This document shows positions 1 to 5,016 of a DNA stretch of 64,000 bases, in pieces. How positions within the stretch are numbered: position 1 is the stretch's first letter; every line of letters starts with the position of its first letter. Under the pieces are notes generated by a model. That model ran no database searches. It had not been told where the DNA came from and saw only the letters and a list, made by a program, of their open reading frames with translations. The translations under genes were made by a program, and so were the position numbers. The stretch is from the sequence record DRR378314_405; one strand, given 5' to 3'.

Positions 1-256
1 GTAAACTCAGAGGAAGCCCTTTCTGCACAGAAGGTGACATATGGGAAGGCCGTCTTTATATTTCAAGAATCTTTTTTAGAAAAAACAATTAAAATGGCCA
101 AGGACGAGAAAAACTGCTCAATTTTGTGATCTATGCCACCCATTCCCCTGTATAAACAAGGAAAGTTTAATGTTATTAATTTTAAATTATCTAATATTTT
201 AAATAAGATAATATACAGATCCAAGCTGGCTCTGTTCGCCAGCCCTTGTAGAGTAT

Positions 257-997
257 GTGATGATACTGAACTTGAAATTCTTGATCCTCCTTCCTGTCTT
301 CATGTGCCTACAAGTGAGCAATTCACGGTCACAGGAAATAGACCCGGACTATTGCCTGAAAATGAACACCCTTAATGCGGTATCCGGGGAACTGAAATAT
401 CTCGGGCTCAATTTCAAAGCCCTGATGGAAAAATCCGGTATCTGCGTTGACCTGCTGAGCATACCCCTGGAGCGATCTGCCGAGATGCTTAAAGACGGGG
501 CAATTGACGGACAGGTCGTCATCACTGAGGATCTTGGCAATCTCATTCAGGATGTTGCAATTGCGGTGGACATTCCCTTTGGAAAATCCGTCGCGTGGAT
601 CATCTATTCGCCTGAACTTAAAACTGACATCAATACTATAGGGGTCGTGCGTGGCGCGAAATGGACGCAGCGAGTGCTGAGATCCAATCCCCCTGATTTT
701 TTGTCGGAAGACTACACGCTTGTTTACGGATCAACGCATCAAAACCTTGTTTCCATGCTGTCCCGAAACCGGCTGATGGCAATACTTGGTACGACGCGGG
801 AAATCCAAGCCATAGATACAGCGGGATTAGGACTGAGCAAGCAGAGACTTGGCGACCTCTTTGGCTATACTTATCTGCACAAACGTCACGCAGCCTATAT
901 CCCGCTTATTCGTCAAGCCTATCAAGCCTATAAGGAAAAAGGATGCCTGCTGGATGATCCACAGGGAATTCAAGACATATGCCTGGCCACGAATTAG
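257..997 (+). CDS. Periplasmic substrate-binding protein (family 3-like), orphan
   Basis: N-terminal signal peptide; 'PLERSAEMLKDGAIDG' and 'YTYLHKRHAAYIPLI' segments typical of PBP2/SBP_bac_3-like proteins. Confidence 0.65.
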   Translation: MMILNLKFLILLPVFMCLQVSNSRSQEIDPDYCLKMNTLNAVSGELKYLGLNFKALMEKSGICVDLLSIPLERSAEMLKDGAIDGQVVITEDLGNLIQDVAIAVDIPFGKSVAWIIYSPELKTDINTIGVVRGAKWTQRVLRSNPPDFLSEDYTLVYGSTHQNLVSMLSRNRLMAILGTTREIQAIDTAGLGLSKQRLGDLFGYTYLHKRHAAYIPLIRQAYQAYKEKGCLLDDPQGIQDICLATN

Positions 998-1077: not shown

Positions 1078-1587
1078 TCACGCAGCCCGTAAATGGCTGA
1101 TCCGGCGGAACACCAGTTCCTGCCAGGCTTTCGTGCCATAACCGTGAACAGCGTCATGATGGATGTCCTGCCAAAACGGCGCACAATCTTCCTGCAGGTT
1201 GATGGCCTGCAAAAATCCGTCTTCCACCACAACGAACTGGGTCTTGTAGGGCACCAGATAATAACCGCTGTTGCGCAGCAGGAAGACCTTGGCCTCCTGA
1301 TAATCGGCGAACCAGTGGTTTAACAAAGGCGTACAGCGGTTGGAATACCAGAAGGTGCCACGGCTGGGCTCCAGGCTGGCGGTGCCTTCCAGAACATCAC
1401 GGGCATGGCACCAGTCCCGAAAGCCAAGCTCGGTGCCAATCACATTCAGGCAAAGCTTGCGTTTCAGCTCCCCCTCCCCGCGCCAAACGCGAGAGAGACG
1501 TTTCACGGCAGCGGGATCGCCAGCCAATGCGGATTTCTGTAATTTTTTCGCTCGGATTTTGAGCTCTTCAATCGACATGTTTGTCAT
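1078..1587 (-). CDS. Hypothetical protein with N-terminal 'ELKIRAKKL...ELGFRDW' (Glyoxalase_8-like) helical domain
   Basis: ORF 1078..1629; likely start ATG at 1587 after AAGGG; motifs LNHWFADYQEA and YLVPYKTQF look conserved. Confidence 0.7.
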   Translation of the reverse strand: MTNMSIEELKIRAKKLQKSALAGDPAAVKRLSRVWRGEGELKRKLCLNVIGTELGFRDWCHARDVLEGTASLEPSRGTFWYSNRCTPLLNHWFADYQEAKVFLLRNSGYYLVPYKTQFVVVEDGFLQAINLQEDCAPFWQDIHHDAVHGYGTKAWQELVFRRISHLRAA

Positions 1588-1589
1588 TT

Positions 1590-1740
1590 TAATAACCCTT
1601 AAGTCTACCCGGCACTCCCGCAATGCCAACTCAAAAGTCTTGTTCGTTCAAACAGTCGTTTTGCTCAAGTCTAAAAGAGGGTGATTTCATCTTTTGCGGG
1701 CAGGCCTCCCTCGCGGCCTGGCGAGTGTGTACCCGATATT
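1590..1740 (-). ncRNA. Candidate structured cis-regulatory 5' leader RNA
   Basis: Stems CAGGCC/GGCCTG (1701-1720), AAAAGA/TCTTTT (1673-1695), GGCA/TGCC (1611-1627); long-range complement CCCGCAA (1617-1623)/TTGCGGG (1694-1700). Confidence 0.45.
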
Positions 1741-1854: not shown

Positions 1855-3081
1855 ATGACCACCCGCGCGGCCTTGCGGCCGGTAATGCCCATTCTGATTG
1901 CCGCTTCCTTTATGCTGACCATTGCTTTTGGTCTTCGGCAAAGCCTGGGGCTGTTCCTGCCGCAGATTACCGGGGACATTGCGGTCAGCATTACCCAATT
2001 TACCGCTGCCATCGCCCTGCAAAATCTCGTCTGGGGATTTTGTCAGCCGATCGCCGGAATTGCCGCTGATAAATGGGGATTTCGGCCCGTCATGATCGTC
2101 GGGGCCATTTCCTATCTGATCGGGATGCTGGCCATGGCATCGGCAGACGGGGTCTGGATGATCCTGTTTGGAGCGGGCGTTTGTGTAGGGATCGGCATGG
2201 CCTGCGCGTCCTTTGCCATGACGCTTGCCGTGACGTCCCGTCTGGTGCCTGTCTCGGTCCGCAGCACAGCCCTTGGGATTGTCTCTGCCGCAGGCTCGAT
2301 CGGGGCCATGGTCACCGCACCTTATGGTCAGTTCCTGCTCAATAGTTTTGACTGGCGGATTGCCGCCCTGGGCTTTGCCGTGCTGGCTTTGCTGATCATC
2401 CCAGCGGCGTGGATTGCCGGACGGGTGGACAAGGAAGCGCCGCTGGAACTATCAGCCGATAACGCTGATCGCCTGTCGGCAACCGGGGCCATGCAGATGG
2501 CGATTAGAAATCCCAACTTTGTGGTCATGGCCATGGCCTATCTGGTGTGCGGCATGCAACTGGTCTTCCTGACCACTCATCTGCCGTCTTACCTGCAGAT
2601 TTGCGGGATGGACCCTATGCTGGGGGCGACGGCTATCGGGATCATTGGCGGGTTCAATATTCTGGGCAGTCTGTTTTTTGGCTGGGCGGGCCAGCGATGG
2701 AACAAACAGGCGTTGCTCGGGCTGATTTATTGTTGCCGGTCTGTGGTTCTGGCGGTCTATTTCATCACCCTGCCGTCCGCGGAAAGCACAATCCTGTTTG
2801 CCGCCGTGATGGGCTTCCTCTGGCTTGGGGTGTCCCCGCTGGTCGCTGGATCGGTGATCGAGATGTTCGGTCTTCGCTGGCAGGCAATGATCCAGGGGTT
2901 TGCGTTCTTTAATCACCAGTTTGGCAGCTTTTTGGGGGCCTTTGGCGGTGGCTGGCTGTTTGATAAATTCGGCTCATACGATGTGGCGCTGATCATCGGT
3001 ATTTCCATGGGATTAACCGCCGGATTTATCCAAATTCTTTTTGCACTGGTGCGCCCGCCCAACAAACCGGTGGCCGCCTGA
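1855..3081 (+). CDS. MFS transporter
   Basis: About 12 hydrophobic segments; 'GIAADKWGFRPV' MFS motif A; start moved to ATG 1855 (AGGA upstream). Confidence 0.9.
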   Translation: MTTRAALRPVMPILIAASFMLTIAFGLRQSLGLFLPQITGDIAVSITQFTAAIALQNLVWGFCQPIAGIAADKWGFRPVMIVGAISYLIGMLAMASADGVWMILFGAGVCVGIGMACASFAMTLAVTSRLVPVSVRSTALGIVSAAGSIGAMVTAPYGQFLLNSFDWRIAALGFAVLALLIIPAAWIAGRVDKEAPLELSADNADRLSATGAMQMAIRNPNFVVMAMAYLVCGMQLVFLTTHLPSYLQICGMDPMLGATAIGIIGGFNILGSLFFGWAGQRWNKQALLGLIYCCRSVVLAVYFITLPSAESTILFAAVMGFLWLGVSPLVAGSVIEMFGLRWQAMIQGFAFFNHQFGSFLGAFGGGWLFDKFGSYDVALIIGISMGLTAGFIQILFALVRPPNKPVAA

Positions 3082-3144: not shown

Positions 3145-5016
3145 ATGAAGTTATCACTGGATCAGGAAATGGGGCTGGCAGCCCGATTGCAACGGGATGG
3201 CAATCTGCCAGCGGCGGAAAGCCTCTATCGGAAAATTCTCAAATCCAACCCCAAGCTGTCCACCGCTCATTATAATCTGGCGCTGATCCTCAAGCAGGTT
3301 GGCAAGACGGCCGCAGCGGACAAGTCCTTCAAACTGGCAGTCAAGGCCGATGCCAATTACACACTGGCCTGGCAAGGTTATGCCCGGTTCCTCAGCGATC
3401 GAGAGCGGCACAGAAACGCGGTCCATGCAGCCCTGCAGGCGGCGAAACTGTCAAACGGATCGCCCAGCAGCAGCCAGTTGGTGGCCGATCTGTTGCAGGC
3501 AGCGGATAAAGCACCCCTTGGCCGTGTGGCAGAGGATGCCCTGGCCTATGTTCTGCAACGATCCGATGTGGATGCGGACATCACGATCGAGCCTGCCCTG
3601 ACCCACCTGCGGGCCGATCCGGTTTTAAAAGGACCGCTTAACGATCCCTCAGCTGACCTTGGCGGGACTGATCTGTCAAAACTGATTTCCGCGCTCAACA
3701 ATCAGGTGACAGGGTTGATTTTCAGCAACCTGATCCTGCCCATTGCAGCCGGGGAAAACCTGATCAGGCAAGTGCGGGATGCGTTCCTTGCCATAAAAAT
3801 TGAGGCGGCACCGACGGGGGATGTGGCAGCTTCGACTGATCATAACGCCCTGCTGGAGGCGATGGCCATTACCGCCCTGCAGCTGGAATTAGGCGAATTT
3901 TGCCTGCCCTCACCGAACACCAGCGCCGCGCCTGACAGCGATGCATCGCTTGAAGCACTGGTACATGCCACCTTAAGAGGCGCAAGATCCATCAGCGCCT
4001 ATGAAGACGCTATAAAGGCAGAGGAGACGCGGCTGCAAACCCTGCCCTTCACCCGGCTTCTGCTAAACCGACTGGGACCGGACCGGCGACGGATCGAAGA
4101 GTTGAAAGCGGATTTTCAGCCAGATCAACCCCCCGCAGATCCGGTGTCCGAACGGGTTCGGGATCAATATGAGCAAAGCCCTTACCCACGCTGGCAAGGG
4201 GTGCGCCACGGGCAGCAAAAAACCCTGCCCGAACTGGTCCAATCGCTGTTTCCGCTGGTGACGGTCAAACGGTTGTCTGAAACCCCCAGGGTTTTGGTGG
4301 CCGGCTCCGGCACGGGCCGGCATGCCCTTCGAACGGCCCTGCGCCTGAAATCGGCGGAGGTCACCGCCATTGATCTGAGCGCCGCATCGCTGGCCTATGC
4401 GGAAATGAAGCGCCAAGCGCTGAACATATCCAATATCCGCTTTCAGCCGGGGGATATCACCCGTCTGCCAGAGGATCTGGGTCAGTTTGACCTGATCGAA
4501 TGTTGCGGGGTTCTGCATCATATGGCCGACCCGGAAGGGGGATGGCGATCGTTGCTCGGCCATTTGAAAGCCGACGGGGTAATGAAGGTCGCCCTTTATT
4601 CGCAAATTGCCCGTCAGGATGTCATCGCCGCGCGCACTTATCTGAACCTGGCACCGGAAACCGCAAGTTTGGATCAAATCCGCGCCGCCCGCACCGCCCT
4701 GCAGGCCCTGCCCGAAGATCACCCGGCCAAACCGGTCACGCGGGAACTGGATTTTTATTCCCTCAGCGGCTGCCGGGATTTTCTGTTCCACCGCCAGGAA
4801 CAGTGCTTTACCATCCCCCGAATTGCCCAGGCGCTTGAAGATCTGAAACTGGAATTTCTGGGATTTGAATTTGTCAGCACCGCCGCGATGGAGGCTTACC
4901 AACGAGCATTTCCCGGCGATCCGTTTGGACGGCATTTGGAAAACTGGGAAAAGGCGGAGGCCACAACCCCCCATCTTTTTCGCGCCATGTATCAATTCTG
5001 GTGCTGCCGCGCTTAA
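3145..5016 (+). CDS. TPR-repeat class I SAM-dependent methyltransferase
   Basis: N-terminal TPRs (AHYNLALIL); C-terminal 'QYEQSPYPRW', 'VLVAGSGTG' and 'GVLHH' motifs. Confidence 0.85.
   Translation: MKLSLDQEMGLAARLQRDGNLPAAESLYRKILKSNPKLSTAHYNLALILKQVGKTAAADKSFKLAVKADANYTLAWQGYARFLSDRERHRNAVHAALQAAKLSNGSPSSSQLVADLLQAADKAPLGRVAEDALAYVLQRSDVDADITIEPALTHLRADPVLKGPLNDPSADLGGTDLSKLISALNNQVTGLIFSNLILPIAAGENLIRQVRDAFLAIKIEAAPTGDVAASTDHNALLEAMAITALQLELGEFCLPSPNTSAAPDSDASLEALVHATLRGARSISAYEDAIKAEETRLQTLPFTRLLLNRLGPDRRRIEELKADFQPDQPPADPVSERVRDQYEQSPYPRWQGVRHGQQKTLPELVQSLFPLVTVKRLSETPRVLVAGSGTGRHALRTALRLKSAEVTAIDLSAASLAYAEMKRQALNISNIRFQPGDITRLPEDLGQFDLIECCGVLHHMADPEGGWRSLLGHLKADGVMKVALYSQIARQDVIAARTYLNLAPETASLDQIRAARTALQALPEDHPAKPVTRELDFYSLSGCRDFLFHRQEQCFTIPRIAQALEDLKLEFLGFEFVSTAAMEAYQRAFPGDPFGRHLENWEKAEATTPHLFRAMYQFWCCRA

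Follow-up and report, generated by a model that had tools for sequence, protein, structure and literature searches.

Among the described bacterial leader RNAs, the ZTP riboswitch (pfl motif, RF01750) resembles in its layout the element that is the subject of this study, a leader RNA of ~135–140 nucleotides (nt) encoded on the minus strand of a stretch of 64,000 nt from sequence record DRR378314_405 (the window; all positions refer to this whole stretch), directly upstream of the gene of an uncharacterised protein. Both RNAs consist of two sub-domains which are connected by a variable linker and by a short conserved pseudoknot, and in both the interface holds most of the conserved bases. However, the leader of the window does not match the model of the ZTP riboswitch, has other helices and other conserved bases, its 3′ domain abuts the ribosome-binding site and not a terminator, and the genes behind it are unrelated to purine or folate metabolism. 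Compact pseudoknots at the ribosome-binding site that control translation without a terminator are known from the preQ1-II, preQ1-III, SAM-II and guanidine-III riboswitches, whereas the present leader is larger (~135 nt), contains two pseudoknots as well as a long linker of variable length and matches no Rfam 15 family. A further likeness concerns the genomic context. The yjdF motif is tied almost exclusively to one protein family without assigned function, and such a tie to a single uncharacterised family means that the gene context helps little in guessing the ligand. The yjdF motif is found mainly in Firmicutes; in contrast, our leader has an unrelated architecture, occurs in at least six phyla and has GIY-YIG-like, DUF2087, dehydrogenase, SnoaL and MatE partners. 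Finally, the operators of ribosomal proteins and of aminoacyl-tRNA synthetases (e.g., threonyl-tRNA synthetase) are likewise structured and sometimes pseudoknotted leaders at the start region with a one-to-one relation of RNA and protein. Unlike in these operators, no RNA-binding activity or fold is known for the protein encoded here, and the RNA core is conserved across phyla to a far greater degree than operators of this kind usually are.

The original prediction, which was made from the letters of the window, held that the leader cannot be assigned to a named Rfam family. This holds for Rfam 15: the search with positions 900–2200 at E-values up to 10 gave three matches (E 1.8–9.9), none of them on the structured part of the leader and with scores of 9.6–19 bits as compared to gathering scores of 45–80, and in ten other leader-bearing loci only two tRNAs were matched at E-values up to 0.1. 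We regard the leader as a new class within a known kind, namely the structured cis-regulatory leaders and riboswitch candidates. Our literature searches yielded no paper that links riboswitch candidates with DUF2087 or GIY-YIG and no paper on PF20066 or Glyoxalase_8. The main texts of PMC11109978 and PMC8632094 do not mention glyoxalase, GIY-YIG, DUF2087 or Legionella, and their supplementary motif lists might hold the motif. We tentatively suggest that the RNA is a ligand-sensing, cis-acting translational riboswitch-like leader, a reading that we favour with slightly less than even confidence, and we weigh the rival explanations below together with the observations that bear on them.

Conservation and fold of the leader

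It is close to certain that a conserved, double-pseudoknotted, cis-located leader RNA exists. Folding of the single sequence gives no evidence in this respect: the 153-nt leader of the window folded alone has a minimum free energy (MFE) of −39.8 kcal/mol, which 78 of 200 shuffled sequences equal or better (z = −0.26), and the 285-nt intergenic region folded alone has a z-score of −1.89. It is the comparison with relatives that establishes the structure.

The upstream 260 nt of 11 close relatives could be aligned and the leader is strongly conserved among them. Scanning genomes at one genome per species gave 57 loci encoding a homologue of the protein, which are found in Alpha-, Beta-, and Gammaproteobacteria (including Legionella and Coxiellaceae), Acidobacteriota, Deinococcota (Trueperaceae), Myxococcota, Bacteroidota, and Bdellovibrionota, and a motif search showed that the core CCCRC..AAAGA.G...UCACCC precedes homologues in all of these groups. 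From 56 diverse copies the covariance model R1 was built, whose structure comprises the hairpins P1 and P3 and from which both pseudoknots (PK-a and PK-b) were deliberately excluded. R1 matches 49 of the 57 loci, every time upstream of the gene and on its strand, and 12 of these 49 loci belong to lineages not close to any seed sequence. Among the eight loci that were missed, three have a weak, divergent look-alike in the corresponding position, and two loci have weak but correctly placed matches to R1 (L033, E 0.05; L052, E 0.16). A further distant homologue (L188) has a weak match at the right place (E 1.4) and, as judged by eye, a divergent version of the element with CUCGC:GCGAG and UGG:CCA. 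In the window the best match scores 78.1 bits (E 2.6e-19), spans positions 1582–1726 of the minus strand through the start codon and is the sole significant one in 64 kb. Leader and gene are thus conserved together in at least six bacterial phyla, and the proposal of the original prediction that a protein and a leader RNA form a module is borne out at these 49 loci, where the upstream regions of the homologues do contain the core and covarying stems.

A DNA-pattern scan of metagenomes gave at least 120 contigs, and the leader is present in 57 among the matches listed. About half of the listed matches (within L058–L177, e.g., L058, L060, L070) were set aside because they are a coding look-alike encoding GGLGPTEDDLT, which we take to be typical of CinA/MoaB-type domains; this look-alike is a trap for searches of the RNA core that use a pattern only. 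Two metagenome contigs have an unusual arrangement. The 4.4-kb contig L080 carries near its ends two leaders in opposite orientation (74–215, minus strand; 4152–4292, plus strand), both preceding identical N-terminal coding sequence, which could reflect an inverted duplication or an artefact of the assembly. In L065 two tRNA genes of identical score (49–121 and 222–294) are located just upstream of the leader. Genomic and metagenomic copies together were aligned to give alignment A4 with 94 leader copies, 92 of them distinct.

The leader, its gene and the adjoining signals are arranged in the window as follows:

1078–1587, minus strand: regulated family gene of 169 amino acids (aa) with its ATG at 1587; the encoded protein begins MTNMSIEELKIRAKKL
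1596–1600, minus strand: Shine-Dalgarno-like AAGGG, immediately 3′ of P3
1601–1632, minus strand: bipartite hairpin P3, outer GAGU 1632–1629 pairing with ACUU 1604–1601, inner GGCA 1627–1624 pairing with UGCC 1614–1611
1633–1678, minus strand: variable linker, differing in length and sequence among the copies
1679–1695, minus strand: conserved core AAAAGA-UG-AAA-UCACCC, holding a mini-hairpin and the CCC (1681–1679) of PK-a
1696–1700, minus strand: 5′ strand CCCGC of PK-b, pairing with GCGGG 1621–1617 of the apical loop of P3
1701–1720, minus strand: hairpin P1, CAGGCC 1720–1715 pairing with GGCCUG 1706–1701, loop 1714–1707 (RNAalifold)
1708–1710, minus strand: 5′ strand of PK-a, the GGG of the P1 loop, pairing with CCC 1681–1679 of UCACCC
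1726–1731, minus strand: −10-like hexamer TACACA, ending 5 nt before P1
1749–1754, minus strand: −35-like hexamer TTGCCT, 17 nt from the −10 box; 11 close relatives have TTGCnn in this position

In A4 the full proposed structure is paired in 92.3% of the cells as compared to 80.1% in shuffles, double (compensatory) changes are found at 22 of the 28 pairs, and the covariation score is 0.330 versus 0.138 in shuffles. None of 500 shuffles reaches the observed percentage paired, the number of double-change cells or the covariation score, and with slid partner strands the pairing falls to 42–54%. Neither pseudoknot belonged to the model that produced this alignment. In fact, PK-b was predicted de novo, together with P1, by RNAalifold on a plain MAFFT alignment, in which this long-range helix is paired in 55–56 of 56 sequences.

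PK-b is paired in 100% of the 92 distinct sequences and four of its five pairs covary, the partners being CCCGC:GCGGG, CCCAC:GUGGG, CUCAC:GUGAG or CCCGA:UCGGG. The CCCRC strand has nearly always exactly one perfect complement, which is located 40–90 nt downstream and co-varies with it; three copies (L004, L034, L042) retain the helix solely via G:U wobble pairs. PK-a involves a GGG that is invariant in the seed alignment A3, and its pairing is kept in 99.6% of the A4 cells with double changes in five sequences, namely GAG:CUC in three Alteromonadales copies and GGA:UCC in two unrelated copies. Regarding the hairpins, P1 is 89.4% paired with compensatory change at four of seven pairs, and the three segments of P3 are 79–94% paired with compensatory changes at 10 of 10 pairs. 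The mini-hairpin of the core has 3 base pairs (bp) in the window (G1691–C1683, A1690–U1684, U1689–A1685); its general form GAN-NNN-NUC is 95.7% paired in A4 and the third pair covaries. Across the 56 seed sequences AAGA, G and TCACCC are invariant, and ~21 bases are invariant altogether, mostly within junctions and pseudoknots.

The original prediction had started from these complementarities. An inverted repeat list of the minus strand recovers all three hairpins that had been named, CAGGCC/GGCCUG at 1720–1715 with 1706–1701, AAAAGA/UCUUUU at 1695–1690 with 1678–1673, and GGCA/UGCC at 1627–1624 with 1614–1611. The first and the last are P1 and the inner part of P3 and are conserved and covarying; the second is specific for the window, the bases after UCACCC being different elsewhere. 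The 7-nt complementarity of CCCGCAA (1700–1694) with UUGCGGG (1623–1617), from which an alternative or pseudoknot pairing had been proposed, contains with CCCGC:GCGGG the best-supported helix of the whole structure, and the stretch CCGCAAAAG..UCACC which had been singled out as the core turned out to be the most conserved part of the element in the seed alignments.

The conserved bases could in principle be promoter or operator sites in the DNA, serving the family gene or the divergent gene of a major facilitator superfamily (MFS) transporter. A sigma-70-like TTGGCA-16-TAGACT (1629–1602) does overlap P3, and similar hexamers are present in alphaproteobacterial relatives. However, this hexamer pair is lost outside the alphaproteobacterial copies, and we therefore rejected it as an internal promoter, whereas the pairing of P3 persists there via double changes. 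In addition, G:C alternates with G:U and U:G in P1 and in PK-b, and the alternation of U:G with C:G at one pair of P1 is compatible with the minus strand only; these strand-specific changes argue for a structure at the RNA level, formed by the minus strand. As the 5-bp long-range complementarity moreover covaries across a variable distance, and the element tracks the family gene in all contexts but the divergent neighbour is not conserved, we regard conservation at the DNA level as highly improbable. A sigma-54 reading of TTGGCA..GC was also rejected, as judged by hand, since the spacing of GG to GC is wrong.

The protein family and its operons

The leader precedes genes of a protein family that has escaped annotation. 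The closest relative of the window protein is a hypothetical protein of Sneathiella limimaris with 85% identity, and a profile search gave 503 representative clusters at E-values up to 0.001. The window protein matches none of the Pfam families at E-values up to 1 and no NCBIfam, PADLOC or PHROGs family; a sequence search of the PDB with the family protein gave nothing below E 0.88, plasmid and phage collections searched by tblastn gave no match, and neither did a search among proteins of 329–2000 aa. AlphaFold2 models the window protein with high confidence (predicted local distance difference test, pLDDT, 95.4): four helices at the N-terminus precede a beta-alpha-beta-beta unit, after which more helices follow. 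The C-terminal alpha/beta domain, which holds the beta-alpha-beta-beta unit, has a pLDDT of 89.3 when modelled alone; the glyoxalase/VOC fold, in comparison, is a cup built from paired beta-alpha-beta-beta-beta modules. Searches of solved folds with the whole model and with the C-terminal domain gave a best VIA Z-score of 4.5 and a best Foldseek E-value of 0.38, and no glyoxalase or VOC entry is among the matches listed in either search.

The original prediction had called the protein Glyoxalase_8-like, which is true for its N-terminal part only. Alignment by hhalign to Pfam PF20066 (Glyoxalase_8) has a probability of 96.7% (E 4e-10) and shows that the N-terminal helical module (about residues 5–70), which has a nearly invariant lysine inside a conserved ELK..A motif, is homologous; the alignment spans 82 columns only (query 14–117 versus template 7–88 of 143), that is, the module and a weak continuation. 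The C-terminal halves cannot be aligned, and the Pfam threshold is not reached by the window protein but by two distant members of the family (P0217 and P0223, 28.8 and 29.8 bits versus 23.7). Glyoxalase_8 itself is present in 41 of 401 sampled Pseudomonadota, often just as an N-terminal piece heading longer proteins. In L209–L218 and other loci, open frames of 180–440 aa begin with a match to the first ~55 Glyoxalase_8 positions and to no further part of that family. Thus, the N-terminal helical module seems to be a mobile unit that has been joined to various domains. At true Glyoxalase_8 loci the leader RNA is found in 0 of 30 cases; the leader belongs to this subfamily and not to the N-terminal module in general, and this weakens the idea that the shared module is a general cognate binder of the RNA.

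The family gene is not always the first gene behind the leader. Sorted by the first reading frame after the leader, the 94 copies are distributed as follows:

Family protein: 50 copies
GIY-YIG-like protein of ~120 aa: 17 copies, with the family gene seen later in 14
Frame of 22–39 aa ending where the family gene starts: 11 copies
Short-chain dehydrogenase: 4 copies
SnoaL-like protein: 1 copy (L028:2322–3005, Haliangium), the family gene following
MatE efflux pump: 1 copy (L030:1498–3017, Bowmanella), the family gene following
Frame broken or cut by the contig end: 10 copies

The GIY-YIG-like partner exists in two forms. In three loci of Myxococcus and Corallococcus (L044, L046, L054) it forms the C-terminal part of a fusion with the family protein, and in the 17 metagenome loci (e.g., L112, L105, L062) it is free-standing and first after the leader. 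Comparison of the free protein with the C-terminal part of the Myxococcus fusion gave 50% identity (E 2e-33). Given this homology of the fused and free forms, the family protein and the GIY-YIG-like protein probably act together. Other family members are fused to DUF2087. In the Undibacterium-type loci (L011, L019, L022, L024, L066, L097, L123, L158) the frame of 22–39 aa ends exactly where the family-DUF2087 gene begins, with a stop/start overlap ATGA in L011, and the sequence of these spacer frames is not conserved. This arrangement looks like translational coupling, and the short frames abutting the family gene would fit with a control at the level of translation that is passed on by coupling. 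SnoaL-like genes are also found near the Coxiellaceae copies L040, L041, and L043.

In the window there is no GIY-YIG-like gene. The family gene is separated by 267 nt from the divergent MFS_1 transporter gene (1855–3081, plus strand, Pfam E 4e-37), which has a promoter-like site of its own at 1797–1826 (TTGCCA-18-TATAGT) lying back to back with the promoter of the leader; this neighbour is not kept at other loci carrying the leader. Further downstream, the plus strand encodes at 3145–5016 a protein of 623 aa which combines TPR repeats at its N-terminus with a class I SAM-methyltransferase domain. On the other side a 246-aa reading frame (257–997, plus strand) runs towards the family gene from its 3′ side and gave no match in a Pfam scan at E-values up to 1.

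The close relation between RNA and protein raises the question whether the encoded protein, alone or with its GIY-YIG-like partner, binds its own leader and represses its translation. The RNA is found only in operons that hold this one protein family. In five of five whole genomes checked there is one RNA copy, sited at the family gene, and among 151 sampled Burkholderiales species the RNA occurs in three and the protein in four; three coincide with both features adjacent, and the fourth genome has a weak protein match and no scored RNA match. These distributions fit autoregulation equally well and in this respect weigh against a ligand-sensing leader. As is typical of translational operators, the start region lies within or beside the structure. 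Fusions or neighbouring genes link the family with DUF2087 and GIY-YIG-like domains, which act on nucleic acids, and the nearly invariant lysine of the ELK..A motif would suit such a role as well. Because of the strict co-occurrence of RNA and protein and of partner domains acting on nucleic acids, autoregulation is a serious rival.

Nevertheless, the true Glyoxalase_8 loci, which share the N-terminal module, lack the RNA, and the first gene behind the leader is not the family gene but a GIY-YIG-like gene in 17 copies and a dehydrogenase, SnoaL or efflux pump gene in others. In addition, the RNA core is much better conserved across phyla than the protein; a core conservation exceeding that of the protein is unusual for protein-binding leaders. 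The fold searches revealed no recognisable RNA-binding fold, which is weak evidence as the protein fold matches nothing at all. Taken together we consider autoregulation to be less likely than a ligand-sensing leader.

Promoter, start region and proposed mode of action

If the start of transcription were located downstream of the structure, the original prediction of a leader RNA would fall. The spacing of the promoter places the likely start upstream of it: 69 of 89 distinct copies have a TAnnnT hexamer whose end lies 3–9 nt in front of P1, as compared to 0–4 copies per offset elsewhere, although the −10-like hexamer of the window ends in A, unlike the TAnnnT of other copies. Given this conserved spacing of the −10 box, the transcript most likely starts at P1, in the window at about 1719–1722. 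A scan for promoters and terminators gave no terminator-like sites within the leader of the window. The element takes up the entire 5′ untranslated region as far as the start codon, and this position suggests a control of translation. A purine-rich ribosome-binding site, followed by the ATG ~8 nt on, is found at a nearly fixed distance after P3 in all 56 seeds. A leader peptide inside the core was considered and rejected, as only cores with GAUG provide the AUG at 1689 and GAGG or GACG stands there in the other classes.

In the natural leaders the start region is more occluded than in shuffled ones. When modelled thermodynamically without pseudoknots, positions −14 to +6 have a mean unpaired probability of 0.31 in the natural leaders versus 0.44 in the shuffled ones, and it is lower in 91% of 90 copies. 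The pairing of the linker with the start region is stronger than that with three controls from the coding region (−13.6 versus −12.4 kcal/mol, Wilcoxon p 0.001), and in A4 the helix between linker and AUG is paired in 64.6% as compared to 31–54% in slid controls, with 61 double-change cells versus 27 in shuffles. These linker-pairing and accessibility statistics count related sequences as independent, so that the significance at the start region is overstated, and they ignore pseudoknots. In the Beta-type and Undibacterium-type copies the helix UGACAG:CUGUCA alternates with UGAUAA:UUAUCA, and in the Legionellales-type copies AUUCAU and CCUU of the linker are opposite AUGAAU and AAGG. In the window, positions 1658–1649 of the linker (CGACUGUUUG) are complementary to 1583–1573 (CAAACAUGUCG), that is, to codons 2–5, and this duplex is seen in the MFE structure of the 285-nt region. 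Against mononucleotide shuffles the linker:start duplex is weak (mean z −0.65), with a value of +1.83 in the window because its pairing falls after the AUG. A pairing of linker and start region throughout the family has moderate support.

We suggest that these parts could work together as follows. Transcription would begin a few bases before P1. P1 and the near-invariant CCCRC-AAAGA-NG-NNN-UCACCC form the 5′ domain, closed by PK-a (GGG:CCC), and the long bipartite hairpin P3 the 3′ domain, with the variable linker between them and the 5-bp PK-b (CCCRC:GYGGG) docking the two domains. The ribosome-binding site and the start codon, which follow the 3′ strand of P3 directly, are in most copies partly engaged in pairing, either with the linker or with P3 at its base. 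A putative small ligand would bind to the conserved pseudoknotted core and alter the docking of P3 and with it the accessibility of the start region to the 30S subunit, acting as an ON or as an OFF switch. How strongly the operon's first gene is translated would depend on this accessibility, and coupling would extend the effect to the family protein where it is encoded behind another frame.

Several observations speak against such a switch, in addition to the distribution of the RNA discussed above. The window's own leader has a start-region accessibility of 0.48, which equals the 0.48 of its shuffles, and its single-sequence fold is, as reported, unremarkable. Mutually exclusive helices that hold for the whole family were searched for and none was found. 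A specific candidate, in which AAAAG mimics the ribosome-binding site and competes for the pyrimidine tract before P3, was rejected as its complementarity of 4.73 bp is, over the whole family, not above the 4.54 bp of composition-matched shuffles (p 0.17). The complement of AAAAG and the pyrimidine tract is clear only in the CCCAC class, where it is perfect with a mean of 6.6 bp, and the competition of AAAAG, pyrimidine tract and ribosome-binding site is visible also in some alphaproteobacterial copies.

The missing family-wide pair of alternative helices would be expected if the leader did not respond to a ligand at all but were an mRNA-stabilising 5′ fold, an RNA thermometer or another physical sensor, or the target of a trans-acting RNA or a general factor. 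The position of P1 within a few bases of the likely transcription start is like that of 5′ protective hairpins, and the partly paired start region is like that of thermometers. However, ~21 invariant bases and two covarying pseudoknots over at least six phyla go far beyond the needs of stability hairpins or thermometers, which usually keep pairing strength rather than sequence. A ligand-independent leader appears slightly less likely to us than autoregulation.

A ligand-sensing riboswitch-like leader remains the reading that we prefer, for three reasons. The core of the RNA is far better conserved than the proteins (62–75% identity of the 5′ domain between phyla as compared to ~28–40% protein identity), the invariant bases sit in junctions and pseudoknots, and the first regulated gene differs between the copies. 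In addition, two hallmarks of riboswitches are found, a covarying domain with invariant unpaired bases and a cis position in the 5′ untranslated region adjoining a putative expression platform. It is also possible, though we are slightly more doubtful about this, that the leader is a new riboswitch class whose two-domain, double-pseudoknot aptamer recognises a metabolite or a toxic compound, and that it switches on the translation of a small response system which was spread by horizontal transfer through at least six bacterial phyla. With similar doubt, this system might consist of the family protein and the GIY-YIG-like nuclease partner, joined in some species by a dehydrogenase, a SnoaL-like protein or an efflux pump.

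Structured leader RNAs that are conserved across phyla are rare; most of the studied ones sense a metabolite or an ion, and several of them have led to biology that had not been recognised before. With its two domains bridged by a 5-bp loop pseudoknot the RNA described here is a clean case for structural studies. It probably governs a protein family of ~500 clusters without annotated function or recognisable fold and provides an experimental handle on it, as the screening of ligands or partners in vitro could annotate the family, its GIY-YIG-like partner and possibly the N-terminal module. If the leader is indeed a new riboswitch class, the identity of its ligand would show what the protein family does, and likewise the N-terminal module that the family shares with Glyoxalase_8.

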